64,000 nt of DNA from an uncultured Acidobacteriaceae bacterium (GTDB taxonomy: Bacteria > Acidobacteriota > Terriglobia > Terriglobales > Acidobacteriaceae), in contig CAWGCQ010000001.1 in assembly GCA_963821165.1 (NCBI GenBank), positions 732,427 to 796,426 of the forward strand, read 5' to 3'. The position numbers and the translations under genes are program-made. The notes beneath the pieces are model-generated. The model saw only the letters and a program-made list of their open reading frames with translations. It ran no database searches and had not been told where the DNA came from. Every line of letters starts with the position of its first letter. The first letter of the stretch is position 1. Below, piece after piece: positions 40,294 through 63,193 of this stretch.

Positions 40294-40455
40294 CTTAGCC
40301 AACTTAATTCGAGTCAACCTCGAAACCTCGCACGTCTAACCCTCAGAAGCGATCCCGGTTCATGGTACGGCCTCACCGCCCGATGAACCGGGATCCACCA
40401 GGCCTCCTTTCCCCTTTACCGCATCGGCTCCGCGTACGAGCCCCAGGAGATCCCC

Positions 40456-40599: not shown

Positions 40600-40613
40600 T
40601 CTCAGCGGCCGTT

Positions 40614-40644
40614 CTAATCCCTGATCCCTGATCCCTAATCCCTG
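40614..40644 (+). repeat. Heptamer array (CCCTGAT/CCCTAAT)
   Basis: ctaat ccctgat ccctgat ccctaat ccctg. Confidence 0.88.
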
Positions 40645-40676
40645 CTTTCCGCTCCCTGCATTTATCATCATCTGCA

Positions 40677-41297
40677 ATGAGCATGCGCATCGGTCTCGGC
40701 TTTGACTCTCACGCCTTCAAGAAGGACGTGCCGCTGATCATCGGCGGCCTCAAGATCAATCACCCCGAAGGCCTCGCCGGCCACTCCGACGGCGACCTCC
40801 TCCTCCACGCCATCACCGACGCCCTCCTCGGCGCAGTCTCCGCCGGCGACATCGGCACCTTCTTCCCCCCCACCGACCCCAAGTGGAAGGGCGCCGACTC
40901 CACCCTCTTCCTCAAGACCGCGCTCGAAGAGATCGCCCTCGTCGGCTTCAAAATCGTCAACATCGACTGCGTCCTCGTCATGCACCGCCCCAAGATCGTT
41001 CCCCTGGCCGGCGAGATGCGCGAGCGCGTCGCCGACCTCCTCGGCATCGACGTCAACAACGTCAGCATCAAGGGCAAGACCCCCGAAGGCCTCACCCAGG
41101 ACGGCACCGCCGTAGCCCACGTCGTCGTCCTGCTCGAATCCATCGACCTGCCCAACGAGCACAAGAAGCTCACCCTCCACGCCGACGCCCCCGACGAAGC
41201 CGACATCGACGCCGCCCTCGCCGCCGTTTCCAAACCCCGCGACATCAGCGCCCTCGGCCGCAAGCTCCCCACCTTCGACACCGACGACCTCACCTAA
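40677..41297 (+). CDS. ispF: 2-C-methyl-D-erythritol 2,4-cyclodiphosphate synthase with C-terminal extension
   Basis: RIGLGFDSH, GHSDGD..LHAITDALLGA, GDIG..FP, SIKGKT.E. Confidence 0.96.
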   Translation: MSMRIGLGFDSHAFKKDVPLIIGGLKINHPEGLAGHSDGDLLLHAITDALLGAVSAGDIGTFFPPTDPKWKGADSTLFLKTALEEIALVGFKIVNIDCVLVMHRPKIVPLAGEMRERVADLLGIDVNNVSIKGKTPEGLTQDGTAVAHVVVLLESIDLPNEHKKLTLHADAPDEADIDAALAAVSKPRDISALGRKLPTFDTDDLT

Positions 41298-41497
41298 CCG
41301 CCTGCACCAGCACTGGCAGTTGCCAATTCTTTCGTCATTCACTCCGTGAGTCGCTTCTACCCGCCCACCAGCTGCACCGCGAGCGAAGAACCCGGAACCG
41401 CCCATGCCCTCCGGTCGTTTCCGCCAACGCCCCTCCGTTTTCCCTTTGCCCCCACCCACCTTCTCGCGTACATTGTCCTCATCAATCGGAGGGCACC

Positions 41498-43498
<2,001 letters not shown>

Positions 43499-43510
43499 GC
43501 CTCGTTCATT

Positions 43511-43601
43511 CAAGGGCCAACGGCCCGACCCATCACAGCCTGGGGCGCAGCCCCAGGGTAACCACACCCCAAATCCAAGGGCTGAAGGCTCGACATATAC
43601 T
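43511..43601 (+). repeat. ~85 bp REP-like composite repeat, copy 3
   Basis: Matches copies at 39218 and 41836. Confidence 0.85.
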
Positions 43602-43728
43602 GGGGGCAACGTCCCCACGCGCGCATACCCAGTCCCGAAAAACACGACAACGATCACCCACCCCACCAACCCCATCCATGCGATAACCTAATCCTCACCA
43701 CCACAGCAATCGGGCTCCCATCCCAAAA

Positions 43729-44514
43729 ATGGAGCACCCCCCCATGGCCACCGACGCGGTCCACCGCCAACCCCTGCCCCGCACCCGCAACATCCCCATC
43801 AACCGCACCCGCGAGCGCCTCTTCTTCGCCCTCATGACCATCCTCATGGTCGCCACCATCCTGCTAGGCTTCCGCGCCAGCTACTTCCCCTTAGGCGAGC
43901 GCCCCGCCGCGCTCGCCAACACCGCCATCATCCTGCACGCCGCAGTCTTCTCGCTCTTCCTCCTGCTCTTCGCCGTCCAGACGACGCTCATCGCCGCCCA
44001 CCGCGTCCGCTGGCACATGAAGCTAGGCCTCTGGCTCTACGGCCTCGCCGCGCTCATGGTCCCCCTCGGCGTCCTCGCAGCCATCGACGAACTCCGCCGC
44101 GACGTCGCCATCAACCGCTACCCCGTACCCGGCGTCGATGGCCGCACCTTCTCTATGATCTCCATCATGGGCATGGTCGTCTTCGCCGTCCTCATGACCT
44201 GGTCCTACCTCGAGCGCCGCAATCCTGCCGCCCACAAGCGCCTCGCCCTCTACGCCGTCCTCTCCATGATGAACGCCGGCACCGACCGCTGGCCCTGGCA
44301 GGCCTGGGGCATCAGCGACAGCTGGTCCCTCTGGGTCTTCGCCGCCATGCTCCTTCTGCCCGCCCTCTACGACCTGATCAGCCTGCACCGCATCCACTGG
44401 GCAACTGCCTTCTCCGCGCCCTTCATATGGATCCTCTTCTGGTACGAGTTCCCCATAGGCCGCACCCACGCCTGGCACGCCATCGCCGACCTGTCCCTGA
44501 AACTCCCCCACTAA
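43729..44514 (+). CDS. Hypothetical polytopic membrane protein
   Basis: About 7 TM helices; conserved-looking His motifs (LHAAVF, WHMKLG, AHKRL). Confidence 0.75.
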   Translation: MEHPPMATDAVHRQPLPRTRNIPINRTRERLFFALMTILMVATILLGFRASYFPLGERPAALANTAIILHAAVFSLFLLLFAVQTTLIAAHRVRWHMKLGLWLYGLAALMVPLGVLAAIDELRRDVAINRYPVPGVDGRTFSMISIMGMVVFAVLMTWSYLERRNPAAHKRLALYAVLSMMNAGTDRWPWQAWGISDSWSLWVFAAMLLLPALYDLISLHRIHWATAFSAPFIWILFWYEFPIGRTHAWHAIADLSLKLPH

Positions 44515-44615
44515 CCGGTGGGCATCGCGCGCCAGCGCGACCGCCAAAGGGGTATCCCCCCACCGCCCCAGTACAAATTCACGCTCCGGTGATAAAACTA
44601 TCGCCGAGGTCTCTC

Positions 44616-45023
44616 ATGTACCTGACCACCAACCAACCCATCGCCTTCATCCCCACCGTCGACGGTGCCGCCGCGCGCAGCTTCTACGAAACCGCCCTCG
44701 GCCTCGACTTCGTCTCCGATGACGACTTCGCCATCGTCTTTAGCATCGGACCGACCTTCCGCGACGGCTCCTCCCGCACCATGCTGCGCGTCACTCGCGT
44801 CCCGAAGCCGTTTACGCCCGCCCCCTTCACCATCTTTGCCTGGGAGGTCGACGACATCCACGCCACCATCGCCGACCTCAAAACCCGCGGCGTCGAATTC
44901 CTCCAATACGACTACTTCGAGCAGGACGAAGCCGGCGTCTGGACCGCCCCCGGCGGCGCCCAGGTAGCCTGGTTCCAGGACCCCGACGGCAACACCCTCT
45001 CCCTCGCCAAACACCCCTCCTAA
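44616..45023 (+). CDS. VOC/glyoxalase family protein
   Basis: ARSFYE..LGL, WEVDDI, RGVEF, AWFQDPDGN.L. Confidence 0.9.
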   Translation: MYLTTNQPIAFIPTVDGAAARSFYETALGLDFVSDDDFAIVFSIGPTFRDGSSRTMLRVTRVPKPFTPAPFTIFAWEVDDIHATIADLKTRGVEFLQYDYFEQDEAGVWTAPGGAQVAWFQDPDGNTLSLAKHPS

Positions 45024-45029
45024 CGCCCT

Positions 45030-45600
45030 CGCCGTTGCCCTTGCCTTTCTTTCTGTCATTCCCTCCGGGAATCTGCTTCTTCCTTTGCCTTTGCCTTTGC
45101 CTTTGCTTTTGCCTTTGCCTTTGCCTTTGCCTTTGCTGTTGCCCTTGCCGCTGCCTTTGCCTTTGCTGTTGCTGTTGCTGTTGCCCTTGCCGTTCTGGCT
45201 GTCATCCCGCAGGGATCTGCTTCTTCCTTTGCCTTTGCCCTTGCCTTTCTTTCTGTCATTCCCTCCGGGAATCTGCTTCTTCCCTTGCCCTTGCCGCTGC
45301 CTTTGCTTTTGCTTTTGCTTTTGCCTTTGCTCGTTGCTGTTGCCCTTGCCGTTCTGGCTGTCATCCCGCAGGGATCTGCTTCTTCCTTTGCCTGTGCCCT
45401 TGCCTTTCTTTCTGTCATTCCCTCCGGGAATCTGCTTCTTCCCTTGCCCTTGCCGCTGCCTTTGCTTTTGCTGTTGCTGTTGCCCTTGCCGTTCTGGCTG
45501 TCATCCCGCAGGGATCTGCTTCTTCCTTTGCCTTTGCCCTTGCTTTTCTTTCTGTCATTCCCCCCGGGAATCTGCTTCTTCTTTTTGCCTGTGCCTTTGC
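45030..45600 (+). repeat. Array of seven alternating REP-like hairpins embedded in a (TTGCYN)n microsatellite
   Basis: A = tgtcattccctccgggaatctgcttct at 45054, 45254, 45413, 45553; B = tgtcatcccgcagggatctgcttct at 45200, 45359, 45499. Confidence 0.92.
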
Positions 45601-45701
45601 CGCCGCGGCTGCACCTTCTACCGGATTAGCAGGGGGCTTCAGCCCCCTGAGACCGCAGCTCGCAGAATGGGCTTTAGCCCTGGCCGGCCCACCGCCCCCT
45701 C

Positions 45702-46244
45702 CGCAGGACAAAATAAATCCCCTCAAACCACCCCAAAAACAACCCAAAATCCACATGTCAAGCCCCCGACAACCCTCAATGACCCCAAAACCCGCGCCAC
45801 CACTGGCGATTTCTCTCTCACCAACTTGGCATAGTTACCCACCCAACTTGCTACACTTGAAGTAGAGCCCAATTTCAAACAAGCTGCACCGGCGAGTACC
45901 GGCTGCAGCTTTCACATTTAATCCCCTAACTCCAACGGAGAGAAGATCATACGCGTAACTCTTTTAGAATGAGCCGAGTGAAAGCAGCCTTCACCAAGTA
46001 ACTCGCACATTCCAAACAACTTCACTAACCAAAAGTGAAAGTAGGGGGAGGGGGGTATACCCGAGGCGCCCATCGCGGCAACTACCCCCGCCGGGGGGAT
46101 ACTTTGCCCCTTAACCCATCTGAATACAATCAGTTACGCCAAAAAATGCCCCCTGCTAAGGGGGATACTTTGCCACCTAACCCGTTTGACTGCACGACTT
46201 TAGCGCAAAAACAGCTAGTGCGAGGGGGGGAGGGGGGGTCCCTG
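45702..46244 (+). repeat. Structured non-coding element, left copy of a long inverted repeat
   Basis: Reverse complement of 54471-55008; I count 3 mismatches over 45783-45872. Confidence 0.95.
45849..45857 (+). promoter_or_regulatory. Candidate extended -10 promoter TGnTACACT inside the left element
   Basis: TGcTACACT here and TGaTACACT in the right copy; only the free position differs. Confidence 0.55.
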
Positions 46245-46284
46245 TCGGGCGTTCTTGGCCCGATGGGGTCAGAAGGGGGGTACC

Positions 46285-46803
46285 CTAGTCCCCGGTAACC
46301 GCCACCACCACCGGAAGCGTCTTCGGCGGATAGCAAACCGCGTTGTCGCAAGCCTGGTAATGCAGCGCGCCAGTCAGCGTCGACGAGCCCTTCGGCACCA
46401 CCAGCCGCACGCTCACCCGAAACTCACCCTGGTACACATCCAGCGTCTCGCCCGAACCCACCGGCAGCCGGTACGTCGACCCCTTCGGATACTGCTCATC
46501 CACAACCTTCGTCCCGCTCCCTGCATTCAACTGCAGCGCGGTCGGAATCAACAGCTCATCCTTGGGCCGATGCGAATTGATATGAAACCCATCCTGCACC
46601 CGGAACCGCAGCTCCACCACCTGCGGCTGACCAGCCTTCACCTCAACCGCATCCGAAAGCAACTCCACATGAGCCCTATGCACAACCGGCCCAGGATTCA
46701 ACTGAATCTCCTGCGCCCCAGCCCTCAACCCAAGCGCAGCCACCAACGCTGCAACACACCACCAACACCCTGGACCCTGGGCCCTGGACCCTGGGCCCTT
46801 CAT
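46285..46803 (-). CDS. DsbD N-terminal-like (DsbC-associated) domain protein
   Basis: Signal peptide; GFHINS, LIPT.L, YPKG, LHYQACDNAVCYPP. Confidence 0.85.
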   Translation of the reverse strand: MKGPGSRAQGPGCWWCVAALVAALGLRAGAQEIQLNPGPVVHRAHVELLSDAVEVKAGQPQVVELRFRVQDGFHINSHRPKDELLIPTALQLNAGSGTKVVDEQYPKGSTYRLPVGSGETLDVYQGEFRVSVRLVVPKGSSTLTGALHYQACDNAVCYPPKTLPVVVAVTGD

Positions 46804-47418
46804 AGCCCACCCGAACCGATCGCCTTCTGAATATCCGCCTCGAGCTCATTCTTCGAATGCGCGCCGATCGTCTGGTCCACAACCTTGCCGCTCTTGTCCA
46901 CGTAGAACGTCTCAGGAATGTAGTCGCTCAACTGATAGCTCTTCGACACAGCGTCATCCGGCATCAGGATCGGATACGTCACGCCAACGCGCTTGGACGC
47001 CTCCGCAACCTCCTTCACCGCCATGCCATCGTCCTGGTCCAGCCCCAGCACAACCAGTCCCTTGTCCTTGTACTTGTTCTGCAGATCCTGGAACCAAGGC
47101 ATCTCGAGCTTGCACGGTCCGCAATACGTAGCCCAGAAGTTCAGCACCACCGGATGTCCCTTGTAATCGGCCAGCGAAACCTTCTTGCCGCTCAGATCCA
47201 CCAGCGTGAACGACGGCGCAGCCTGACCAACCAGCTTCTTAGCCATCGGATCGTCAGCCGAATCCGCCGACGCAGACGAGGAATCAGCAGGCGTGAGCTT
47301 CTACCTGCTGCGCCTTCTGCATCACCATCTGCCGATGCCGCAGGTTATGCGTACCTGCCATCACCACCAGCGTCACACCCGCAATCAGCAACACGACAAT
47401 ACTCAAACGACGAACCAC
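46800..47418 (-). CDS. TlpA family thiol-disulfide reductase, frameshift near 47300
   Basis: APSFTL, VVLNFWATYCGPC..EMP; N-terminal TM anchor in another frame from GTG 47418. Confidence 0.9.
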
Positions 47419-47528
47419 GGCAAGATCCTTCGGCGCAGGCCGATCAGCGCCCGCGCTCCTCCTCTAGTCTATCGCTGATCAGCCGTCTCTGCTAGCATTC
47501 TCCCTAGCCAATATCTACGCCAGCCGCA

Positions 47529-48524
47529 ATGACCCAGCTTCCTCAAACGCAAGTCCCAAAACGCCCCGCTGACCTCATCCGGATTGAGGCCGAAGCGCTC
47601 GAGCAACTCGCCCAGCGCCTCGAAGGCCCTCAGGCTCAGGTGTTTGAGCAGGTTGCCGAGCTGCTCGCCGAAACCTCCCGAAGCGGCCATCGCGTCGTCC
47701 TCACCGGCATCGGCAAGAGCGGCCTCATCGCTCGCAAGATCGCCGCAACCCTGCTCTCCACAGGAACCGCGGCTCAGTTCCTGCATCCCACCGAAGCGCT
47801 CCACGGCGACCTCGGCCTGCTCAACCGCGGAGACGTCCTGCTCGCCCTCTCCTACTCCGGCGAGAGCGAGGAGCTGCTTCGCCTGCTGCCAGTTCTTCCG
47901 CGCCTCGGCGTAACGCTGGTCGCGCTCACCGGCTGCGAGGACTCACCTCTAGCCAAGGCCAGCGCACACGTACTCGACGTCAGCGTGGACCGCGAAGCCT
48001 GCAACCACCAGCTAGCGCCCACAGCCTCGACCACCGCAATGCTAGCCCTCGGCGATGCCCTCGCCATCGACGTCAGCCGACGCCTCAACTTCCAGCCCCA
48101 GGACTTCGCCGAGCTCCATCCCGGAGGTCAGCTCGGCAAGCGCCTGATCCCGGTCAGCCAGCTCATGCACACCGGCGACGCAATCCCAACGGTCGCCCCG
48201 ACCGCAACCCTCCCAGAGATCATCCACGAGATGTCCGCCAAGCGCCTCGGCCTCACGACGGTCCAGTCGCAGGGCAAGCTCCTAGGCATCCTCTCCGACG
48301 GCGACCTCCGACGGCTCTTCGCCCGCAGCGGCCCTGACGCCTTCCACCGAACCGCAGCCGAGATCCTCAACCCCAACCCACGCACGATCGCCTCCAACCC
48401 CTTCGCCGGCGACGCCCTCACCGTCATGGAACGGCACAAGATCACCGCCCTGATCGTCACCGAAGACGGCACCGGCGCGACAGCGGTCCAGGGCGTCCTG
48501 CATCTCCATGACGTGCTCGCGTAA
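47529..48524 (+). CDS. kdsD: Arabinose 5-phosphate isomerase (KpsF/GutQ family)
   Basis: GIGKSG, HPTEALHGDLG, SYSGES, APTAST, HPGG.LG, CBS pair. Confidence 0.94.
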   Translation: MTQLPQTQVPKRPADLIRIEAEALEQLAQRLEGPQAQVFEQVAELLAETSRSGHRVVLTGIGKSGLIARKIAATLLSTGTAAQFLHPTEALHGDLGLLNRGDVLLALSYSGESEELLRLLPVLPRLGVTLVALTGCEDSPLAKASAHVLDVSVDREACNHQLAPTASTTAMLALGDALAIDVSRRLNFQPQDFAELHPGGQLGKRLIPVSQLMHTGDAIPTVAPTATLPEIIHEMSAKRLGLTTVQSQGKLLGILSDGDLRRLFARSGPDAFHRTAAEILNPNPRTIASNPFAGDALTVMERHKITALIVTEDGTGATAVQGVLHLHDVLA

Positions 48525-48584
48525 GTTCTGTACTCAAAAGCGTTACCAACCTCTGATACGGCGCTCCGATACAATCGTACGAAT

Positions 48585-50437
48585 ATGCATCGTTGGTCGA
48601 AGCTCTTCATTCCCACTCTCCGCGAAGCCCCAACAGACGCGGAAGTCGCAAGCCACAAACTCCTTCTGCGTGCTGGATATATCCGTCAGCTCGGCGCTGG
48701 CATCTACAGCTATCTGCCGCTCGGTCAGCGCTCGCTGAACAAGATCATCGCCATCGTCCGCGAAGAGATGGACAAGATTGGCCAGGAGTTCTTTCTCCCT
48801 GCCCTGAATCCAGCAGAGATCTGGCAGGAGTCCGGCCGCTGGATCGGCATGGGCGACAACATGTTCCGCCTAAAGGATCGCAAAGGCGCTGAGCTCTGCC
48901 TGGCGATGACGCACGAAGAGGTGATCACCTCCATCGCACGCAACGAACTGCGCAGCTACAAGCAGCTCCCGCAGATCTGGTACCAAATCCAGACCAAGTT
49001 TCGCGACGAACCCAGGCCCAAAGCAGGGCTGATGCGCGTCCGCCAGTTCATGATGAAGGACTCTTATTCCTTCGACATCGATGCAGCAGGTCTCGACGAT
49101 AGCTATAACAAGCACGACGCTGCATATCGCGCGATCTTTACTCGCTGCGGCTTGCACTTCGTGGCTGTCGATGCCGACTCCGGCGCAATGGGCGGATCGC
49201 AGTCGCAGGAGTTCATGGTCTACACCGAAGCCGGCGAAGACCTTATCGCCAGCTCAGCATCCGGCTATGCGGCAAACCTGGAGAAGGCGACGAGCAAGCT
49301 CATGCCTGTCGAGGACCTGGCTCCGACAGGCGATGGCACGCCGGAACTTGTCTACACTCCGGGCAAAGCTTCCATCGCGGATGTCACCGAGTTCTTCGGC
49401 ATCGAAGCCTCGCAGGACATCAAGTGCGTCGCTTTCATGGGACTGACTGCGGACACCGCATCTGTCCCGCGTCCCATCGTCGCGTTCCTTCGCGGCGATC
49501 ACCAGGTCAATGAAACCAAGCTCGCCGCGATAACCGGCGTTACCGAGCTTCGTCCAATGGTACCGCTTGAACTCGAGATCCACATCGGAGGTCCCGCAGG
49601 ATTTCTCGGACCTGTAGGCATTGCTGAGGTCATGACGCAAGGCTCGCTGAACGGCCTGAAGTCGGGCAAGGAGCTTGCGAAACTCAAGGGCGTTCTGCGC
49701 GAGAATCCGAGCGAAGGGTTGAAGTCCATCGTCGTGATGGACCTTGGTCTGGAAGGTCGCACGAATCTCGTCGCCGGCGCGAACAAGCTGGACTATCACT
49801 ATCGCAACGTCACACCCGGCCGCGACTTCACGCCGACCGCTCATCGCCGACATTCGCAACATCAACGAAGGCGAGCTCGATCCCATCGGCGGTCAGCCGC
49901 TGCGCCTCGGCAAAGCCATGGAGATCGGCCACATCTTCAAGCTCGGCTACAAGTACAGCGAGAGCATGAATGCGCGCGTGCTGGATGCCAACGGCAAAGA
50001 GGTAATGCCGATTATGGGATGCTACGGAATCGGCGTTGAGCGCATTCTTACCGCTGCGATTGAATCCAGTGCAGCGAAGTTCGCCGCGGAATCGTCGACC
50101 GAGCAATACGCTTTACCGGCCTCGATCGCGCCCTTACGAAGTGATCGTGACCATCACGAACGTGCGTGAACCGGAGCTTCTCCAAGCCGGTGAAGATATC
50201 GCCAGGAAGCTGGAGGCTGCGGGAGTCGATGTATTGCTGGACGATCGCGATGAGCGAGCCGGAGTAAAGTTCAAGGACGCAGAACTGATCGGAGTTCCTT
50301 ATCGAATCAATATCGGCAAGAAGCTCGCGGACGGCCAAGTCGAACTGGTAGATCGTCTGACCCAGAAGACCGAAGATCTGGCCGTTGATTCCGTTACGCA
50401 ACACCTCGTAGCGCTGCTTGCTGCGTCCAAACAATAG
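48585..50437 (+). CDS. proS: Proline--tRNA ligase, frameshifts near 49840 and 50130
   Basis: [74 protein letters not shown]. Confidence 0.97.
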
Positions 50438-50455
50438 GATCTTCGATTCGATCGC

Positions 50456-52980
50456 ATGCCTGTAAAAGTCAAACTCGATAGCACCTCCCATCCCGTTCTC
50501 TGGCAGCTGTTGCGTGCAGCTCTGGTGCTGGCGATCGTCTTCTTCCTAATTGGCGGCTCTGTTTTCGGCTATTTCTACTTGCGCTACCGTGGCCTGGTTG
50601 CTGAACGGCTCGCAAAGGGACCACTCTTTGCTCCGGTCGCGCAGGTCTATGCAGCGCCTCAGGAAGTTCGTCCAGGACAGCAACTCTCGGCATCTGCCAT
50701 CGCTGCCGCTCTGCGGCGCGCGGGATACAACACAAACCCGGAGCTAGGCAGCTATGAGCTTCGCGGCGATTCGATCCTGATCAAACCAGGCCCGCAAAGC
50801 TACCTCGCGATGGACGGCGCCACCATCACGTCCGAGGACGGCCAGGTTCAGAGCATCACGGCAGAGAACGGTGCTGCTTTGTCCGCCTATAAGCTCGAGC
50901 CTCAGCTTATAACGGCGTTATCAGAGGACAAGAATCGAACCAAGCGGCGTCTGGTTACCTATAACCAGATTCCACCAAACATGGTTCAGGCCGTGCTGGC
51001 GATTGAGGATCGCCGCTTCTTTGAGCACTCAGGTATCAACTATGTGCGCACTGCGAAGTGCGCAGTGCAGGATATTCTCGCTCACCGAATGAACTGCGGA
51101 GGATCCACGCTCACCCAGCAACTGGCCCGCGGGTTCTTTCTATCGTCAGAGAAAACGTACTCGCGGAAGATTGCCGAGGTTGTGATCACGTACCAACTCG
51201 AGGCTCGCTTCTCCAAGCAGCAGATCTTCGAGATGTATGCCAACGAGATCAACCTTGGCCAACGCGGTTCGTTCGCGATCAATGGCTTTGGCGAAGCCGC
51301 GCAGGCATATTTCGGGAAAGACCTGCGCCAGCTGGACCTAGCCGAATGTGCCTTGCTCGCGGGGATGATCCAGCGGCCAAACTACTTCGCTCCGTATCGT
51401 CATCCTGACCGAGCCATGGAGCGACGCAACGTCGTGTTGGATTCGATGGTGGAGACGGGCGCCATCACGCAGGAGCAGGCTGATCGAGCAAAGGCTGAGC
51501 CGATTCGTTTAGCCCCTCCAGATGCCGATGCAAGCGAGGCACCCTATTTCGTCGACCTCGTTCACGATCAGATCTTGCAGCGACTCGGCGACTCGGATGT
51601 CACTCGCTCGGCCCTGCGGATCTACACATCGCTCGATCCCGAGCTTCAGCGCGCAGCTGCCTCCGCGATCGAGGCGGGCATGAAAAATGTCGATGAACTT
51701 GTGCGCCGTCGCTACTTTGCGCTCAACCACAAGAAGGGCGAGAAGTTCAGCGCGGACTACACGCCGGACGGCCACATTACGTATCCGCAGGTCGCGCTGG
51801 TGGCGCTCAACCCGCACACGGGCCAGATTCTGGCTTTGATTGGTGGGCGCAACTACGGCGACTCGCAGCTGGACCACGCTCTTGCTGAGCGACCGACTGG
51901 ATCCATCTTCAAACCCTTTGTGTTCGCCGCTGCCTACAACACGTCTCTCGACGGCACGAACCTCGGTTCGGGCGGTGTCTTCACTGCTCTGACCGGATCA
52001 ACGACGACCCACAGGATTTCGGTATCAACGGCCAGAGCTATACTCCCGGAAATTTTGTGAAAGGCGAGTATCCCGGCATGGTTACGGCAGCCGACGCGCT
52101 TGCCCACTCCCTCAACATTGCGACCATATCGCTTGCCCAGATGGTTGGCTATGACAATGTCGCGGCTCTTGCGCGCTCGGCCGGCATCGTTAACGCGCGC
52201 GGCACACCGTCGGTCGCGATTGGCACCTACAACGCAACACCGCTGGAGATGGCAGGCGCGTACACCATATTCGCCAACAACGGCGTGCATCTCAAACCCT
52301 GGGTGCTCGCGAGCGTTCGCAATCCGCAGGGCGACATCGTTGCTGATTTCGCACCAGAAGCGAAACAGGTGCTTGACCCGCGCGCTGCCTTCCTCACGCA
52401 ATCGCTGCTGGAAGACGTGATGGCCTACGGCACGGGATCGACCGTACGCGCGCATGGCTTTACCGCTCCTGCAGCCGGCAAGACGGGCACGGAGCACGAT
52501 TCGTGGTTCGCGGGATATTCCTCCAATCTTCTATGCGTGATCTGGGTCGGCAATGATGATTACACCGACCTCAAGATCCAGGGCGCAGATGCTGCCGCGC
52601 CGATCTGGGCCGAGTTCATGAATCGGGCGATTCGCATTCCTCAATACTCGGACATGAAACCGCTGGGCCCTGCTCCCAGCGGCGTGGAGGTGCTGCGCAT
52701 CGATCGAACGACGAACCTGATCGCAGACGATTCCTGTCCGAACAACGCCTTCACAGCGGCCTTCCTGGTCGGAGCCGCACCTCAGGGCACTTGTTCCCAC
52801 ATGGGGGATGATTCTCAATCGCTGGGCAGCCGCATCTTCGGTTTCTTCACTGGGAAATCGGCGACTCCCGCTGCGCCTCCAGGCGATACGCAGCCGGCTG
52901 ATGCCACCAAGCACCGAAATCTGCTGCAAAAGATATTTGGCACTGGCAAGGATAAGCCAAAGGATCAACCACCGCAGTAG
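50456..52980 (+). CDS. Class A penicillin-binding protein (PBP1B-like), frameshift near 52000
   Basis: EDRRFFEH, GSTLTQQL, RKIAE; SIFK, SLN and KTGT transpeptidase motifs. Confidence 0.94.
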
Positions 52981-53028
52981 CTGCGTTGACCTGTTTCGCT
53001 GAATCGAGTGGTCGGATGGGGCTCGTTC

Positions 53029-54366
53029 TCAAGCTAGCTGGATCGGTTGATGCTGCTGCGCGCGCGCGCGGCCCAACGTGTGGTCTAAATTGCCTAGCCA
53101 ATATCGCAACAGGAAATAGCCAATTGCCCAGATGATCAGATTCACCACGAACTGCGTTATCCAAAACCATTTGTATGCCATCGAAAACATCAGCATATGC
53201 ATTCCGAAAAATGCCAGGCCCGCGCACTCACGGCCCAGTGTTGCTGGCTTGTACGGAAATTTATCGAAGAGCAGGGGCAGCGCCACGAAGAAGATAGGCC
53301 ACGCGTATCCGATGAGGCGCGCAAACCAGGTTCCCAGCACGGGCGCCAATATGAGAGATGCAACCCCGTAAAGCAGAGCGAAGCGCAAGAGGACACTCGG
53401 TGAGTTGAGCTTTCTGCCTCGCCACCAAAGGAAGGCCAGCAGTAGCGGCAAGAGGCCAAATTCACTCAATACGGCTTCAGATATAAGCACCCATCCCGTG
53501 ACCGAAAATCCGCATATCCCAATCGCATGCACTTGTCCAAGGTGAAGCTGCCATGACCACCGAGGAACTGCGCAGAATTGAGTGTTCACGTTGCTCCACG
53601 GAACCAATCCGAAGACGTTGTACATAAAATTCCAAGGCACTTTCGCGAGCATATAGATTGACTCTGGAAGGTTCTCCGCGTTGGGCTGCGCGCGCATTGC
53701 AAGATGTTTCACCACGACGCTCCCTGCGAGCGTTGAGACAACCGCAACAATTCTGTCCGTCCATCTCAACCTCTTCCAGGCTGCGATCAAGAAGCAGACG
53801 AGGGTCAGCGACGTCGACTCTCGAGAGAGCATCAGAGGAAACATCATCACGGCCGCTGCCAGCATGTGTTCGTCGTCCAGCAAGAGAAGCAATACGGCTA
53901 AAAGCGCTGAGTACCAGAGGTCGGGCAAGACGAGGTCCTGCAACAGAAAGGGCCAGAACGGCGCAAACGCCATGGCAAACAAAAACCATCTGGGAGCTGT
54001 TGTTTTGAGTGCGAGATAGTAGATTGCGACCAGCATAAAAACGATGGAGGCAGTGCCTTCGATCAAGAATCCGCGCTCAACGGTGGAGTGGAACAGATGC
54101 ATCCATCCAGTCACCATGAGAGCGCCAAGCTGGCGGGACGCGAAGGGTTGCATCACTTGGCTATAGTCGCCTGTGGCCATTGCAATATAGAACCGCGCGT
54201 CACCATTGATAAAGACTGACTCGGAATGCCCAACGCTATACATGGCGTAGAGCAAGCAGCAGATGATTGCTGCGAGCGCTACGGCGACGCGCATGACTGG
54301 AGGCATTCGTCGTATGGGCGCGTTGAACGCGCGAACTATCGCAAGAGCTTTAGCAGACAAACGCAA
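53029..54366 (-). CDS. Hypothetical polytopic membrane protein, possibly a GT-C fold glycosyltransferase
   Basis: About 10 TM helices; first-loop GDARFY and later LSRES; AT-richer than its neighbours. Confidence 0.6.
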   Translation of the reverse strand: MRLSAKALAIVRAFNAPIRRMPPVMRVAVALAAIICCLLYAMYSVGHSESVFINGDARFYIAMATGDYSQVMQPFASRQLGALMVTGWMHLFHSTVERGFLIEGTASIVFMLVAIYYLALKTTAPRWFLFAMAFAPFWPFLLQDLVLPDLWYSALLAVLLLLLDDEHMLAAAVMMFPLMLSRESTSLTLVCFLIAAWKRLRWTDRIVAVVSTLAGSVVVKHLAMRAQPNAENLPESIYMLAKVPWNFMYNVFGLVPWSNVNTQFCAVPRWSWQLHLGQVHAIGICGFSVTGWVLISEAVLSEFGLLPLLLAFLWWRGRKLNSPSVLLRFALLYGVASLILAPVLGTWFARLIGYAWPIFFVALPLLFDKFPYKPATLGRECAGLAFFGMHMLMFSMAYKWFWITQFVVNLIIWAIGYFLLRYWLGNLDHTLGRARAQQHQPIQLA

Positions 54367-54470
54367 TCATCTCCTTGAATGCTCCAGCCTTTAGCGCATT
54401 CCTCCACCCTTATACATGGAGCGGATTTCGAACTGCTGTTCGACGTTCGAAGCCTGCGTTGAGACGGGAC

Positions 54471-55008
54471 CAGGGTACCCCCCTCCCCCCTCCACCTGGC
54501 TGTTTTTGCGCTAAAGTCGTGCAATCAGACTAGTTAGGTGGCAAAGTATCCCCTTCTCAGGGGCGACTTCTTGGCGTAACTGATTGTATTCAGGCGGGTT
54601 AAGGGGCAAAGTATCCCCCCGGCGGTGGTGGTTGTCGCGATGGGCGCCTCGCGTATGCCCCCCCTCCCCCTACTTTCACCTTTGGTTAGTGAAGTCGTTT
54701 GGAATGTGCGGGTTCGTTGGTGAAAGCTGCTTTCACTCGGCTCATTCTAAACGAGTTACGGCTATGATCTTCTCTCCGTTGGAGTTAGGGTTTAAATGTG
54801 AAAGCTGCAGCCGGTAACTCGCCGGTGCAGCTTGTTTGCATTTGGGCTCTACTTCAAGTGTATCAAGTTGGGTAGGTAACTATGCCAAGTTGGTGAGAGA
54901 GAAATCGCCAGTGGCGGCGCGGGTTTTGGGGCGTTCGCGGGTGGGTGGGGGCTTGACATGCGAAATCCGGGCTGTTTTCGAAGCTGGTTCCAGAATTTAT
55001 TTTTCTGC
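54471..55008 (-). repeat. Structured non-coding element, right copy of the long inverted repeat
   Basis: Reverse complement of 45702-46244. Confidence 0.95.
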
Positions 55009-55031
55009 GCGGCCGCGAGGGCTGCGCGGGG

Positions 55032-56669
55032 TCAGGATGGATATGGAAGAGGCTGCTCGGTTTTGGGTGGGATGGTTTGCATGGCGCGTTCGGTCAGGGC
55101 GGTGATGGTGAGGGCGGGATTGACGCCTAGATTGGCGCTGATGACGGAGCCGTCGCAGATGTAGAGGTTGGTGTAGTTGAAGATGCGGTGGTAGCTGTCG
55201 ATGACGCCGTGGGCGGGGGTGTCGGCCATGGGGGCACCGCCGATGCAGTGGGCGGTCATGGGGATGTTGAAGAGGACCTCGGTGATGGTGGTGCAGGGGA
55301 CGCCGCCGGTGACCTGGGCGCCTAGTTCGGCGAAGCGGTTGGCGGAGGGGATGTAGGTGGGGATCGGGTCGCCGGCGGTGGTGAGGACCTTGACGAAGGG
55401 CCAGTACCAGGGGCGTTTGAGGCGCATGGTGAGAGGGCTGTCGATGGCCTGCATGCAGAGGAGGATGAGGGTTTCGTGAGAGGCGCCGAAGGGTTGGAGG
55501 GCGCGGAGGGTTCGCAGCGGGGACCTGAGGAACTGGACCGCGAGGGTGCGCAGCCAGGTGAGGATGCGGGAGGGGCCGGGGCGGCCATTGACGAGCAGGG
55601 TGGAGAGCGGGCTAAGGGCGTCGGAGCCGCGGGGGTAGCGGACGGCTTCGATGTGGGTGTTGGCGTCGATGTAGATGCCGGAGCCGATGGCGATGCCGGC
55701 GGAGAGGTCGTCGGAAGTGCGGGGATAGCGGACGGCGATGAGGGACTCGGCGTTGGTGAGGACGCGGTTGCCTAGCTGGCCGGAGATGTTGGGCAGGGAG
55801 CCTTTTTGCTTGAGGCGGAAGAGGAGGTCTTGCGTGCCGAGGGAGGAGCCGGCGAAGATGACGCCGCGGGTGGTGAGGCGCTGGACGGGGCCTTTGAACC
55901 AGCCGTTGGACGATTGGGTGAAGACCTCGTAGCCGTCGCTTCCGTCGGGCGCGGCGTTGAGGGGACGGACGTCGATGACCTTGGTTTCGGCGAGGATGCG
56001 GGCGCCCTTTTTCTCGGCGAGGTAGAGGTAGTTTTTGTCGAGGGTGTTCTTGGCCTTGTGGCGGCAGCCGACCATGCAGCCTCCGCAGGCGATGCAGGTC
56101 TGGCGGGCGGGGCCTTCACCGTCGAAGTAGGGGTCGGGGGAGGGGGTGCCGGGTGGGTCGTTGGGGGTGCCGAAGAAGACGGCGACGTCTGTGGGGTAGA
56201 AGGTGTGGGCTACGTTTGCGGCCTCGGCCATCTGTTGGAGCTTGAGGTCTGCGGGGCCGAGGATGGGGTTGGAGACTACGCCCATCATGCGTTTGGCGGT
56301 GGCGTAGTGCGCGGGCATGATGTGCTTCCAGTCGTCGAGGCCGGCCCAGGTGCCGTGGTCCCAGATGGTGTCGGGCGGGACGAGCATGGTGTTGGCGTAG
56401 GTGATGGAGCCTCCGCCTACGGCGTTGCCGTGGAGGACGATGACGTGACGGAAGAAGCGGAGGTTGAAGAAGCCGCGCAGGCCTAGCTTGGGTTTCCAGA
56501 AATAGCGGTTGAGGGTCCAGTTGGTCTCGGGGAGATTTTCGGGGGTCCAGCGGCGGCCCATCTCGACTACGAGGACTTTGTAGCCTTTTTCGGTGAGGCG
56601 CAGGGCAGAGACGCTGCCGCCGAAGCCTGATCCGACGATGAGGAAGTCATAGTCGAAGGGCGGCGGCAT
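55032..56669 (-). CDS. GMC oxidoreductase, cholesterol oxidase (ChoD)-like
   Basis: GSGFGGSV.ALRL.EKG, VGGGS..YAN, CIACGGCMVGC, TAHCIGG, NLGVNP.LTI.A..ER. Confidence 0.9.
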   Translation of the reverse strand: MPPPFDYDFLIVGSGFGGSVSALRLTEKGYKVLVVEMGRRWTPENLPETNWTLNRYFWKPKLGLRGFFNLRFFRHVIVLHGNAVGGGSITYANTMLVPPDTIWDHGTWAGLDDWKHIMPAHYATAKRMMGVVSNPILGPADLKLQQMAEAANVAHTFYPTDVAVFFGTPNDPPGTPSPDPYFDGEGPARQTCIACGGCMVGCRHKAKNTLDKNYLYLAEKKGARILAETKVIDVRPLNAAPDGSDGYEVFTQSSNGWFKGPVQRLTTRGVIFAGSSLGTQDLLFRLKQKGSLPNISGQLGNRVLTNAESLIAVRYPRTSDDLSAGIAIGSGIYIDANTHIEAVRYPRGSDALSPLSTLLVNGRPGPSRILTWLRTLAVQFLRSPLRTLRALQPFGASHETLILLCMQAIDSPLTMRLKRPWYWPFVKVLTTAGDPIPTYIPSANRFAELGAQVTGGVPCTTITEVLFNIPMTAHCIGGAPMADTPAHGVIDSYHRIFNYTNLYICDGSVISANLGVNPALTITALTERAMQTIPPKTEQPLPYPS

Positions 56670-56720
56670 AGGTGGACCTCGGGTAAGAGCTGCTGGAGCG
56701 GGATAAGTATACGCAGCGGG

Positions 56721-57855
56721 CTACCTGGGATATCCCTGCCAGATGTACTCGAGGGCTTCGGGGAGGGTTTGGGCGCGGACGGCGTGGTCTACGTGGCCGG
56801 CGTTGCGGGCGAAGACGAACTGGTAGGGGTAGTGTTTGGCGGCGAGGACGCGGGCCATGTCTTCGTTGGCGACGACCCAGTCGTGCATGTCGTCGCGCAT
56901 GAGGTTGGGGTTGTAGAGGTCGCGGTCGCCTACTTCAAGCCAAAGGCGGAGCGGCTTGCGCGGGGAGTTGGGGATGAGGGTGGGTGGAAGCCCCAGGCGC
57001 CTTGCGGGGTTGCGGGGTTCCAGGGCCACTGCTGGTTGACGTAGGTGCCGGAGTAGGTGAGGACGCGGTGGTAGAGGTCGGGGTGGTACCAGGCCATGAT
57101 GAGGGCGCAGGAGCCTCCGGAGCTGCCGCCCATGGTGGCGCGGGCGTCGGGGTCGTGGGAGAGCTTGACGTGGGCCTGGGCTTCGACGAGGGGGAGGACT
57201 TCGTGTTCCACGAACTCGGCGTAGCGGGGAGAGAGGGTGTCGTACTCGAGGCCGCGCTCGGAGCCCTGGGCGTCGCCGCCACCGTTCTGGATGGAGATGG
57301 CGATCATGGGTGGGAGCTTGTGCTCGGCGATGAGGTTGTCGAGGACGGTGAAGAGAAGTTGGTCAGGGCCGTCGGCGCCTACGATGAAGGGAGCGACCGT
57401 GCCGGGGACGTACTCGGCGGGGACGTAGACGGTGACGTGGCGGGTGTAGGGCGCGGGGTGGCTGGTGGTGACGATGAGACTGGCGGGGTTGGTGGGGTCG
57501 GGCGTGCCGAAGGTGCCTGTGTCGCGGGCGATGCCGGGGTAGTATTTGCTGTCGGCGGAGGACATGGTGATGTGGTGAGGGTGCCGTGGGAGACGTCGGG
57601 GTTGGAGGTGGACTCGGGTGCGGGGGTGTGGGTGGGACCGATGATGAAGTTGCCGTTCTGCGTGGGCGCGGGGAGGGTGCCGTCGGGGAGTTCGGTGGGT
57701 GCTGGGCGCACGGCCGGAGTTCGGGTTGGTGGCGTGGGGCGGACGTAAGGGGCTTGCGCGGAGGCGATGGGCTGCGGCGTTGGGGCGGGCGTTTGGGCTA
57801 GCGTTGTGGTGGTCAGGAAGGCGAGGAGCGAGGCGGTGCGGAGGAGGTTGGGCAC
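56721..57855 (-). CDS. Secreted alpha/beta hydrolase (enterochelin esterase-like), frameshifts near 57570 and 56985
   Basis: VTVYVP, ERGLEYD, GGSSGG nucleophile elbow, GHVD. Confidence 0.85.
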
Positions 57856-57967
57856 GAGAGACTCCGGCGGGACGGCTGGCTTGCTATGGCGGTAGCGACG
57901 GGCTACCCTAAACGACTTACGATTGAGGATATCGAAGTGTTTCGATTGGGAGTGGAAAAGGTCATCG

Positions 57968-58387
57968 ATGGTGAGTGAGGCGGAGAAGGCGAGGCTTAGG
58001 GAGTTGGCGGCGAAGGCGGCGGAGCATGCGTATGCTCCGTATAGCCGGTTTCGTGTGGGGGCGGCGCTGCTGCTGGATGATGGGTCGATGGTGACGGGAT
58101 GCAACGTGGAGAACTGCTCGTACCGGCTGACGAGCTGCGCGGAGCAGGGGGCGATTGCGCGGGCCGTGGCGGAGCGGGGCCCGGGGATACGGGTGCGGGC
58201 GGTGGCTGTGGCGAATTTGAATGACGCGGCGAGTATGCCTTGCGGGGCTTGCCGGCAGACGCTGAGTGAGTTTGGCGAGGATGGGATGGTGGTGCTGTAT
58301 CCGGGCGAGAATGGGCCGGAGGAGACGACGCTGGGGGAGTTGCTGCCACATGCGTTTCGGGCGCAGTTTCTTAACGGCAGGGATTAG
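57968..58387 (+). CDS. cdd: Cytidine deaminase
   Basis: AYAPYSRFRVGAA, GCNVEN, CAE, PCGACRQ, ELLP.AF. Confidence 0.95.
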   Translation: MVSEAEKARLRELAAKAAEHAYAPYSRFRVGAALLLDDGSMVTGCNVENCSYRLTSCAEQGAIARAVAERGPGIRVRAVAVANLNDAASMPCGACRQTLSEFGEDGMVVLYPGENGPEETTLGELLPHAFRAQFLNGRD

Positions 58388-58409
58388 GGAACAGGGATTA
58401 GGGATTAGG
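58378..58409 (-). repeat. Heptamer array, G-rich orientation on +
   Basis: caggg attaggg aacaggg attaggg attagg, the reverse complement of 8542-8573. Confidence 0.9.
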
Positions 58410-58418
58410 TGGTTTGCG

Positions 58419-59922
58419 ATGCGTGCGATGGATTTGTTGTTGAAGAAGCGGGATGGGTTGGAGTTGTCGACGGCGGAGATTGAGTTTTTTGTGCGGGCCG
58501 TGGTGCGGAATGGCGAGTCGAAGCTGGCAGCAGGGGCGGGGAATGCGGGGGGCCTTCCCCTTCGGCAAGCTCAGGGTCAGGATGACGGCGAAAAGCAAGG
58601 CGAGACATCGGGGGCTTCCAACGAAAAGATCACGGACGCGCAGTTGGGGGCGTTTTTGATGGCGGTGTTTGAGCGGGGGCTTTCGCTGCGGGAGCTGGGC
58701 GATCTTGACGCGGGCGATGCGGTTCTCGGGGGAGACGTTCGACGCTTCGGGATTGGATAGCGTTTACGTTGGATAAGCACTCGACGGGGGGCGTGGGGGA
58801 TAAGAGCTCGCTGCTGATTGCGCCGGTGTGGGCGGCGGCGGGGATGGATGGTGGCGCGAGTGTGTCGGTGCCGATGATCTCGGGGCGCTCGCTGGGTCAC
58901 ACGGGCGGGACGCTGGATAAGCTGGAGACGATTCCCGGGTTCGATTCGCAGCTAAGTTTGGCGCGGATGGGCGAGGTGCTGCGGGAGTGTCATGCGGCGC
59001 TGGTGGGACAGACGCCGAGGCTGGTTCCGGCGGACCGGATTCTGTATGGGATGCGAGATCACACGGGGACGGTGGAGTCTCCATTTTTGATCTGCGCGAG
59101 CATTATGAGCAAGAAGCTGGCGGAGGACCTGCGCGGGCTGGTGCTGGATGTGAAGGTGGGGTCGGGCGCGTTCATGCCGACGGAGGAGCGGTCACGGTTT
59201 CTGGCAGAGCTGATGGTGTCTACCGGTGAGTCGGCGGGAACGAAGACGGTTGCGTTACTGACGGCGATGGACGAGCCGTTGGGGAGGTTTTCGGGAAACT
59301 GGGTGGAGGTTTGGGAGTGCGTGGATATTATGAAGGGCGTGCGGCATGCGATGTCGGCGGACCTGATTGAGCTGTCGAATGCGCTGAGCGGGTGGGGATT
59401 GTTCCTGGCGGGGCGGACTGGGTCGCCGGAGGAGGGTGCGGCGCTGGCGGATGAGATGTTGCGGTCGGGGGCGGCGTATGCGGCGTGGCTGAAGATTGTC
59501 GCGGCGCAGGGTGGGGACACGAGCGTGTTTGAGGATCCGGCGGCGTTTCACAAGCCGACGGGCGATGCGGGTGCTGCGGTCGCTCGCGCGACGGGTTCCT
59601 GGTGGGGATGGACTGTAAGGAAGTTGGCTGGGCGGTGCAGCGGCTGGGCGCGGGGAGGGCGCGGCCGGGCGATCCGGTGAGCGCGCATGCGGGGATTGAA
59701 TCGCATGCGAAGATTGGGGACAGGGTGGAGGCTGGGCAGGCGCTGTTTACGTTGTTCAGCGAGGATGAGGCGTTGATCGAGGAGCCGTACCGGATGATGG
59801 AGGCCACGGTGCAGATTGCGGAGGAGCGGCGGGAGCGGCTGCCGCTGGTGCGCGAGGTGGTGAGTGCGAGAGCTAATGGGGCGATCGAATCTGCGCCCGA
59901 TCTGCGGCGCAGGCTGACTTAG
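58419..59922 (+). CDS. Thymidine/pyrimidine-nucleoside phosphorylase, frameshifts near 58710 and 59580
   Basis: KKRDG.ELS..EI, DKHSTGGVGDK, SGRSLGHTGGTLDKLE, SIMSKK, LDVKVGSGAFM, LGAGR. Confidence 0.94.
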
Positions 59923-60525: not shown

Positions 60526-60544
60526 CGGCTTACTGCAAGATCAA

Positions 60545-63188: not shown

Positions 63189-63193
63189 TCGCC

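Follow-up and report, generated by a model that had tools for sequence, protein, structure and literature searches.

Inverted repeats bracket a balanced centre

The window, by which we mean the whole 64,000-nucleotide stretch analysed, contains two mutually inverted copies of a modular repeat, here called ABC, that bracket tlpA, kdsD, proS and a PBP gene (Table 1); Pfam agrees with an earlier, sequence-only reading on these genes. That reading had described the elements as diverged reverse complements with 3 mismatches in 45783-45872, a description that alignment bears out: a repeat search returned four collinear arm pairs (45736-46236 vs 54478-54978) that are 87-93% complementary, the 45783-45872 block differs between the arms at exactly 3 positions, and blastn aligned the whole elements at 87.7% over 538 nt. 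Neither copy holds an open reading frame with the coding GC1/2/3 signature, and Rfam searches in gathering and E-value modes found no family in either element. Within the window we found no tRNA and no Y1 transposase. The earlier statements that the elements lack a credible ORF and, as far as Y1 is concerned, that the window lacks a transposase both stand. The TGnTACACT block is kept in 9/9 aligned copies; a sigma-70 consensus promoter scan did not call it and called no promoter in the elements. Two base pairs of the internal hairpin are compensated among copies, with changes on both sides.

Table 1. Features of the locus (window coordinates unless stated otherwise)
Feature	Position	Strand	Basis or remark
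Left skew tract, + strand C-rich	4000..48550		Third-position skew -0.4 to -0.8, genes of both strands
Left copy of the ABC repeat	45702..46244	+	Repeat alignment, blastn
Modules A, B and C of the left copy	A ~9-175, B ~122-355, C ~375-543 (element coordinates)		
TGnTACACT block	45849..45857	+	Resembles extended -10 promoter element; points to centre
GC-rich hairpin of the element	45881..45911	+	Internal, conserved
G5-A-G6 tract, end of module B	46043..46057	+	
Second G tract of the left copy	46223-46239		
DsbD_N	46285-46803	-	Pfam
TlpA-like redoxin	46800-47246	-	Pfam
KdsD-like SIS+CBS protein	47529-48524	+	Pfam
Balanced centre: proS (ProRS), PBP1, one further gene	48550..54400		Pfam for ProRS, PBP1
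Right copy of the ABC repeat, inverted orientation	54471..55008	-	Absent from relative G001
Right skew tract, + strand G-rich	55030..64000		Third-position skew +0.56 to +0.89
GMC-type oxidoreductase, first gene of right tract	55032..56669	-	Pfam

The + strand passes from C-rich through balanced to G-rich across the locus, as had been proposed, both in overall GC skew (~ -0.33 on the left, ~0 at 48.5-54.4 kb, +0.38 on the right) and in windowed values (-0.2 to -0.42 at 4-48 kb, -0.02 to -0.05 at 49-54 kb, +0.26 to +0.40 at 54-60 kb). At third codon positions the skew reaches +/-0.6-0.8 and is set by the DNA strand, not the gene strand; in the balanced centre it runs from -0.2 to +0.3, with a GC3 of ~0.67, and GC3 is higher in the tracts. 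The bias fades leftwards to ~0 at some 80 kb distance and rightwards to ~0 at some 35 kb. The left copy has no skew step at its 3′ end. C-richness of the + strand continues for a further 2.3 kb, through the DsbD_N, TlpA-like and KdsD-like genes (46285..48524), which are inside the pair yet C-rich on this strand. This caveat, already raised for 46.3-48.5 kb, holds, and it argues against the left copy priming a rightward leading strand there. A segment flipped in from the right side was ruled out as its source, given that G001, G003 and G015 share the gene order of G000.

In the left tract the G-rich strand shows a per-site cytosine loss (C>T, C>G) 1.4-2.2 times higher than its complement; over the initial 9 kb of the right tract the factor is 1.5. 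Loss rates in the tracts are not above those of the balanced centre. The flux in the right tract rejects a reversed regime.

A saw-tooth of strand bias across the genome

The sequence-only reading had made this pair the centre of a switch; the site is in fact not unique, being one of ~33 sharp flips of origin polarity, and it is not a proven origin. Genome-wide we counted 33 sharp C-to-G steps against 11 G-to-C steps, and 23 against 4 among those above 0.3; most are sharp within 1.5 kb, and the profile also contains ramps 30-75 kb long in which per-gene values are intermediate, and some of these ramps cross zero. The polarity is that of an oriC, but these 33 steps replace the single skew switch per chromosome that an oriC would give. 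We found no description of such a saw-tooth in the literature on Acidobacteria or other bacteria.

In both G015 and G000 the G-rich strand carries the rRNA genes, rplB and rpoB; the usual rule of a G-rich leading strand therefore holds, and the steps are points where forks would diverge. A canonical oriC had been named as a possible source of the switch; dnaA could be located at C3:735547, on another contig than the window. The related claim of no dnaA in the window and no DnaA-box cluster extends to the whole genome as regards the boxes: searched as TTATCCACA with at most 1 mismatch, an E. coli-type box from which that of the host phylum may differ, they form no cluster of 3 or more within 600 bp anywhere. 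Within 1 kb there are 0-1 boxes at any step and 0 at the window node.

A first count placed 70% of tract genes on the G-rich strand, an artefact of a gene caller that uses purine content; a skew-independent caller gave 52%.

Oriented repeats mark most steps

ABC is a dispersed, modular, non-coding element with 42 loci in the genome, ~17 of them at a tract edge. Its other copies lie in oriented skew domains, as the sequence-only reading would have it: orientation agrees with the local skew sign at 41/42 loci, and this lock holds also for copies inside tracts. The two window copies are mutually inverted because they are located in tracts of opposite polarity. Among the eight Y1 genes of the genome, two are followed immediately on their 3′ side by modules A and C, oriented as the gene is; one scores as an NCBIfam IS200/IS605 transposase (63.9 bits, cut-off 55), and the other is RAYT-like at 60.6 bits, below the cut-off of 80. 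The elements are thus copies of a dispersed repeat family linked to IS200/RAYT-type (Y1, HUH) transposases.

A second promoter-like tandem motif, OM, occurs at 42 loci and behaves like ABC in its orientation. A C-rich tract lies on the 5′ side of OM at 31/42 loci, as against 1 of opposite sign, and 25/42 loci coincide with a step of +0.2 or more (expected 3.1; maximum 10 in 2000 shuffles), positioned 0 to +1.5 kb 3′ of the motif. Together, OM or ABC copies are found within 6 kb of 24/33 steps (expected 6.3; maximum 15 in 5000 shuffles), and most other sharp C-to-G steps likewise have oriented, promoter-like repeats that face inwards. The exact OM pattern is limited, by pattern search, to G000, G012 and, rarely, G001; diverged OM copies at orthologous sites in G001 show the family to be older than that search suggests.

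Conservation and rearrangement among relatives

The switch of origin polarity is real and is kept in the two sister genomes G012 and G001. Signed third-position skew per gene correlates with that of G001 orthologues at r=0.97 over 98 genes, with steps at orthologous positions. The order of the locus and its skew profile are the same in G012 and G001, which excludes a chimeric join, one of the alternatives first entertained. Another of these, inversion between the repeats, has happened in G012 (92% identity), where 45710..54978, both copies included, is inverted relative to both flanks; the elements later served as substrates for this event. In G001, G003 and G015 the segment has the orientation of G000. 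Among sequencing runs, no RNA data set is listed with this DNA; the only matches are soil metagenome contigs of low depth, 0.3-1.5 kb long, with none bridging an element, and among them no strand-changing joint was seen.

The elements themselves come and go. In G001 the right copy is missing and the left one is without module C, and yet its right-hand step persists between two abutting genes; G015 has the saw-tooth, with neither OM nor ABC found in the 1.7 Mb (43%) sampled. The notion that the elements are needed for the switch therefore fails, and they look like markers of the node rather than its cause.

The right flank is found at a distance of 85 kb in G003, and in G015 it is inverted and 1.09 Mb off, which puts the right element at a synteny breakpoint; the orthologue of the GMC oxidoreductase gene is located elsewhere in both genomes. 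In the complete genome G015, the best two-arm skew split falls at dnaA, one step lies 9 kb from dnaA, and tract sign is mixed far from it.

A candidate start zone and its alternatives

We infer that DNA synthesis starts at this locus, which we read, tentatively and with a probability of roughly 0.4, as a conserved, fixed start zone of outward, strand-asymmetric synthesis. At each step, G and T are enriched on the strand running outward 5′ to 3′, and this strand loses cytosines about twice as fast, a footprint to be expected of a lagging-strand template or a displaced strand if synthesis began at the step and ran outward. We propose that synthesis would begin at one or the other edge of the 6-kb centre, and this would account for the balance within it; the zone may serve secondary initiation of replication or may combine two unidirectional launch sites. 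The equally strong skew on either side of the node in G000, G012 and G001 counts in favour of this reading. So do the orientation lock of ABC and OM and their nearness to most steps, the excess of sharp C-to-G over G-to-C steps, the conservation of steps in G001, the strand bias of cytosine loss, the two-arm split at dnaA in G015 and the location of rRNA, rplB and rpoB genes.

Several observations weigh against a start zone. Steps lack a DnaA-box cluster and show no clear surplus of AT-rich sequence, the minimum GC of 80-bp windows being 0.42 near steps vs 0.44 at random places, and in G001 the genes on either side of the right-hand step are ~15 bp apart, leaving no room for origin DNA. The orientation of tract genes is unbiased with respect to tract polarity (52:48 with the skew-independent caller), a head-on test of the gene adjoining a step gave 20 against 15, which is not significant, and rpoBC sits in a balanced zone just right of a step, where forks leaving that step would meet it head-on. 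Most steps run from +/-0.33 to almost exactly 0 and skew is trimodal genome-wide, a pattern that suits an on/off process more than mixed fork directions in which origin efficiency is arbitrary. Third positions in strongly skewed genes diverge somewhat slower, not faster; skew is balanced around dnaA in G018 and G003; and, for the right side, the estimated equilibrium skew (+0.03 to +0.19, with wide intervals) lies below the present value, an estimate too noisy to tell a maintained bias from a slowly decaying one. Finally, ~30 efficient origins in a bacterium would, to our knowledge, be unprecedented. A broader form of the start-zone reading, which we consider unlikely, holds that chromosomes of this genus are copied from dozens of fixed sites besides a dnaA-linked origin, with this locus as one highly efficient start zone and with the ABC and OM repeats either helping it to fire through transcription or being drawn to exposed single-stranded DNA.

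The role first assigned to the repeats within such a scheme, that each inward-facing element primes one leading strand, survives in part: the geometry does recur at most steps, but the left copy has no step at its 3′ end. Synthesis starting downstream of a promoter in the direction of transcription, as in ColE1 and mitochondria, is likewise not what the window node displays.

The bias could instead be a mosaic of rearrangement, in which an extreme two-arm skew has been shuffled by inversions, translocations and acquired DNA, the switch being a breakpoint and the repeats recombination substrates. The synteny breakpoint at the right element, the real inversion in G012 and the two-arm pattern of G015 centred on dnaA all speak for such a history, as do one clean sharp pair of boundaries on C3 (drop at 687 kb, rise at 718 kb) with the appearance of a 31-kb inversion and a substitution flux on the right side that points weakly towards decay. 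Inversions, however, yield G-to-C and C-to-G boundaries in equal number, which is far from the 4 against 23 above 0.3, and the long ramps with their intermediate per-gene values would be unexpected. The right-tract skew is moreover undiminished in three genomes, with a flux that is not that of a reversed regime, and repeat copies within one replication arm are direct repeats, unable to invert the DNA between them. We regard this explanation as rather unlikely.

A further possibility is that a fork meeting a strongly transcribed OM or ABC unit head-on goes on uncoupled, leaving one template strand single-stranded for tens of kilobases. Ordinary forks would then leave little bias, tracts would begin sharply and fade, sharp steps would all be C-to-G for either fork direction, and dipoles would form at inward-facing pairs where regions are copied in either direction. 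Such a trigger would account for the orientation lock even of copies inside tracts, and for the distance of steps from the repeats, 0 to +1.5 kb on the 3′ side of OM and 2.3 kb on that of the left ABC copy, which is where the unit that a fork would first encounter has its far end. It would also make zero the ground state of a trimodal skew, and both the balanced dnaA regions of G018 and G003 and the mixed tract signs far from dnaA in G015 are in line with it. It requires both fork directions at many loci, however, and relies on putative promoter activity of the elements; cytosine loss in tracts that does not exceed the centre and lower third-position divergence are the opposite of a damage-prone mode, and the gene adjoining a step is not significantly head-on. 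On balance we hold this trigger to be quite improbable.

We find equally improbable a process launched by the elements outside replication, either by an HUH (Y1) nickase starting unidirectional strand displacement or single-strand transfer, or by a site-loaded repair machine tracking one strand, with the strands treated differently over a distance set by processivity. The Y1/HUH link of the elements, the one-sidedness of the tracts with their direction set by element orientation, and, by reasoning, a polarity that fits a strand with its 5′ end at the site speak for such a process, and higher GC3 with lower cytosine-loss rates in the tracts would fit strand-specific protection. The step in G001 that outlives its right copy and the tracts of G015 with neither family are hard to reconcile with it, as are the nine steps with no OM or ABC copy within 6 kb, the strongest (C3 539.9 kb) among them; an equilibrium composition set in this way would also demand its action in nearly every generation, and the two-arm split of G015 at dnaA ties the bias to replication.

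Further candidates fail on polarity: a replication fork trap of paired polar Ter sites (with the G-rich strand leading, forks would leave the steps), fork barriers on a background of random initiation (these would produce G-to-C steps) and tracts of Chi/RecBCD type or from break resection (these would, by reasoning, expose the strand with its 3′ end at the site).

Meaning and relation to known systems

The accepted view is that a bacterium replicates each chromosome from a single origin, and strand bias is a standard tool both for finding that origin and for checking assemblies. This genus breaks both uses, and skew-based origin finders and misassembly tests will mislead in it. The new finding lies in the oriented repeats present at most steps: they belong to two families, of which one is linked to single-strand (HUH) transposases, and OM and ABC provide sequence handles for experiments at some 80 defined sites. 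Should the steps prove to be start sites, no multi-origin bacterium would have preceded this one; otherwise, a hitherto unknown polar DNA process has set half of all silent sites in the genome and has also shifted codon positions one and two.

ABC resembles REP/RAYT elements and the IS200/IS605-derived PATEs in being short, non-coding, intergenic, hairpin-bearing and associated with a Y1 (HUH) gene, and in an orientation tied to the replication strand and a presence that varies between close relatives. Unlike REP, it is modular and, at 300-540 nt, far larger than a REP unit, and unlike both REP and PATE only 2/42 loci adjoin a Y1 gene and a conserved promoter-like block is present; we know of no REP or PATE element described as lying at a sharp skew-tract edge, as ~40% of ABC copies do. 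With transcript-primed origins (ColE1 RNA II, the mitochondrial LSP-CSB II-OH arrangement, R-loop oriK of E. coli rnhA mutants) the elements have in common a promoter-like block with G-runs after it, directed at the balanced centre; they differ in that the 3′ end of the left copy lacks a step, the right copy is dispensable and transcription is putative.

The saw-tooth recalls mammalian N-domains in jumping sharply upward and returning gradually downward regardless of how genes are oriented. It differs in occurring in a bacterium, with a bias several times stronger (as strong, in this genus, as in mitochondria), with many steps that reach exactly zero and not the opposite sign and with plateaus instead of straight lines. 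N-domain jumps lie at replication origins; at the acidobacterial steps origins are putative. From a bacterial oriC the system departs in having ~33 switches per genome, and the window node in having no dnaA, dnaN, DnaA-box cluster or clear extra AT-rich stretch, but it shares with oriC the C-to-G switch on the + strand and the leading-strand rule of G>C and T>A.

Strand bias and the inverted pair

The plus strand of the window is C-rich at 4-48 kb (GC skew -0.2 to -0.42), near zero at 49-54 kb and G-rich at 54-60 kb (+0.26 to +0.40), in agreement with the three-part profile read from the sequence alone. Third codon positions show skews of up to ±0.6-0.8, with a sign fixed by the DNA strand and shared by genes of both strands, indicating that the bias belongs to the DNA strand and not to transcription or codon choice. 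The shift at first and second codon positions is far smaller, which marks the bias as an evolved state rather than a sequencing artefact.

A repeat search of the window aligned the two elements as diverged reverse complements with 87-93% identity in four collinear pieces (87.7% across 538 nt) and three mismatches in the best-conserved block, much as the sequence-only reading had described them. Its view of the elements as non-coding also stands, since neither copy contains an ORF with a coding signature or an Rfam match, and Pfam confirms that they bracket housekeeping genes.

Several further features of this region were recorded (see table). In each of the four soil runs, the metagenome contigs lack one base at 49840; the proS break, at least, therefore resembles an assembly indel error, which would fit the 65% marker completeness of the five-contig assembly. 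The 445-aa ORF has the right element immediately upstream in both the source genome and its relative G012 and may take its promoter from it. On the minus strand, each ~157-nt unit seemingly opens with a ribosome-binding site and ATG and codes for a short peptide rich in Lys and Gly; a 5-20x higher metagenome depth over these units shows them to be widespread.

A genome-wide saw-tooth

The inverted pair had been taken to mark the centre of a strand-composition switch; the site proved not to be unique. Across the 4.68-Mb assembly, in which the window occupies C1:732427-796426, 10-kb windows fall into three skew classes near -0.33, 0 and +0.33 (119, 229 and 117 windows, respectively). With steps defined as skew differences between neighbouring 10-kb windows, a count unaffected by contig orientation, 33 steps above 0.25 run up (C to G on the plus strand) versus 11 down, and above 0.3 the numbers are 23 versus 4. 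Roughly a dozen go from minus to plus; the others climb either from -0.33 to near 0 or from near 0 to +0.33. Up steps are mostly finished within 1.5 kb, and the skew returns along ramps 30-75 kb long. As the earlier reading held, dnaA is not at this site; it lies on contig C3, outside the window's contig C1. The genome's strongest step, 195 kb from dnaA, could be the main origin, and the paired sharp steps near the dnaA region resemble a simple inversion of 31 kb or a join.

Features of the window (positions without prefix) and of contigs C1 and C3; ABC and OM are the two repeat families described in the text
Feature	Position	Strand	Observation
Left ABC copy	45702-46244	+	aligned part 45736-46236
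Right ABC copy	54471-55008	-	aligned part 54478-54978
Segment inverted in G012	45710-54978
Genes between copies			DsbD_N, TlpA-like redoxin, KdsD, ProRS, PBP1 (Pfam)
proS	48585-50437		broken into two overlapping frames
PBP1 gene	50456-52980		broken into two overlapping frames
445-aa ORF	53029-54366	-	coding signature; no match in Pfam search
~157-nt unit, four copies	44974-45629		plus strand rich in TGCCTT hexamer
Acido-Lenti-1 RNA motif	43513-43557	-	Rfam RF01687, 39 bits; metagenome contigs end on either side
Divergent stretch	-5 to 15 kb (C1:727-747 kb)		9.7% from G012 vs 3-4% in neighbouring tract; large net shift to C on plus strand along G012 branch
Unskewed stretch	C1:820-970 kb		150 kb near 0, between right tract of the window's switch and next C-rich plateau
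Strongest step	C3:539.9 kb		-0.37 to +0.40 within 1.5 kb, in 370-bp gap; neither OM nor ABC found nearby
Sole large sharp G-to-C step	C3:687 kb		+0.32 to -0.33; paired with sharp C-to-G step 31 kb on, at 718 kb
Two up steps	C3:1833000, C3:2067200		0 to +0.4; neither OM nor ABC; identical 24-nt word and further short blocks shared ~100 bp before step

Two oriented repeat families mark most of the steps

The inverted elements belong to a family, ABC, that forms a three-module mosaic at 42 loci in the source genome. Features common to nine aligned copies are an invariant TGnTACACT block, a G5-A-G6 run, a hairpin with two compensated pairs and two more small hairpins. When orientation was overlaid on skew, it agreed with the local sign at 41 of 42 loci; almost no copies occur in balanced DNA, and ~17 of the 42 lie within 8 kb of a sharp tract end, the tract always lying 5′ of the element (left copy as written).

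A second family, OM, is a ~100-nt element common to the DNA around steps and consists of two 21-nt units (GCAACCCGAAACCnnGCTATA) at 32 nt spacing. A profile search of the source genome placed it at 42 loci, with a C-rich tract on the 5′ side at 31 and the opposite sign at one. Twenty-five loci coincide with steps of at least +0.2 and none with steps of -0.2 or below (random placement: mean 3.1, maximum 10 in 2000 trials), the step lying 0 to +1.5 kb 3′ of the element. OM precedes genes of its own orientation, among them ybaB, ispE, nadB and thiS, by 25-80 nt and thus resembles a promoter region. Inward-facing OM pairs occupy several minus-to-plus steps; the window contains no OM, and its two ABC copies face inward with the same geometry. 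In total, 24 of the 33 up steps have an OM or ABC copy within 6 kb (expected 6.3, maximum 15 in 5000 trials), and 23/30 copies at steps face the step. The blocks shared by the two marker-free up steps of the table may represent a third step-associated element.

Related genomes separate pattern from elements

G012 (92-96% identity) carries the segment between the copies inverted relative to both flanks, so inversion between the repeats, listed earlier as an alternative, has taken place there. G001 (83-85%) is collinear with the source genome and lacks the whole right copy and, within the left one, module C, and there the genes on either side of the right-hand step abut. All three genomes share one skew profile, third-position skew being as strong to the left as to the right (±0.5-0.8); they differ at 22-35% of third positions. 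Three more OM-marked steps lie at orthologous positions in G001, with diverged OM copies at the same sites, and across 98 genes the signed per-gene skew of G001 correlates with that of the source genome at r=0.97. G003 and G015 remain collinear over the left flank and centre and carry the right flank at another location; the proS region of G015 is not balanced. In G015, tracts, ramps and steps recur at equal size, with no OM or ABC copy in the 43% of its length sampled. The pattern thus does not depend on the elements, which speaks against the proposal that they prime the leading strands. The divergent stretch at the window's left end reflects either a tract that extends further in G012 or an import.

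In G015, the half-genome split with the largest contrast in skew coincides exactly with dnaA, at 2.14 Mb, with a minus-to-plus step 9 kb from it and a plus-to-minus change opposite. In that genome the 16S rRNA gene, rplB and rpoB sit on the G-rich strand, directed away from dnaA; in the source genome, too, they are on the G-rich strand. The usual rule of a G-rich leading strand thus holds, making up steps sites where forks would part, not meet.

Substitutions in the source genome and G012 were polarised with G001 as outgroup. In the left tract, per-site C>T and C>G are 1.4-2.2x higher on the G-rich strand than on its complement; in the right tract the ratio is ~1.5x over the first 9 kb. On the left, the implied equilibrium skew (-0.20 to -0.25) indicates a maintained bias; the right-hand estimate spans +0.03 to +0.19, with wide intervals, and the observed G-C loss on that side is far below that of a reversed regime.

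What could produce the steps

On both sides, the G/T-rich, faster cytosine-losing strand is the one running 5′ to 3′ away from the step, an exposure that leaves only processes starting at the step and moving outward. Four would qualify: a fork leaving the step, which exposes its lagging-strand template; strand displacement that begins at a nick; single-strand transfer; and transcription running outward, the last ruled out because the bias is independent of gene strand. A step of the opposite sign would be expected from break resection, Chi-type tracts or fork barriers, which were likewise rejected.

We tentatively favour, at a probability of about 0.4, a fixed start zone of outward DNA synthesis at the window's switch. 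If synthesis began at either of the two edges of the 6-kb centre, the balance within it would be explained. Against a start zone, many steps reach exactly zero, the right-hand step of G001 has no spacer, a step lies just left of rpoBC, and efficient origins by the dozen would be implausible. A mosaic of rearrangements is unlikely, as it leaves the up-step excess and the ramps unexplained. Head-on transcription turning forks to an asymmetric mode is slightly less likely still, and a nick, displacement or repair process launched by the elements ranks level with it. Four observations fit badly with a simple picture: dnaA regions are balanced in G018 and G003; gene orientation shows no bias relative to tracts (52:48); step-adjacent genes are head-on in 20 versus 15 cases, not significantly; and third-position divergence is somewhat lower in strongly skewed genes (0.20 vs 0.26).

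New here are the inversion in G012, the dispensability of the right copy, and the tie between steps, two oriented repeat families and Y1 transposases. The source genome encodes eight Y1 (HUH tyrosine) transposases, two of which have modules A and C immediately downstream in the same orientation; by score, one of the two is an IS200/IS605 transposase, and its counterpart is RAYT-like. Both IS200/IS605 elements and REP/RAYT systems transpose as single strands, in an orientation set by replication. By analogy, replication-oriented single-strand transposition would be the simplest reason for the orientation lock of the ABC family.
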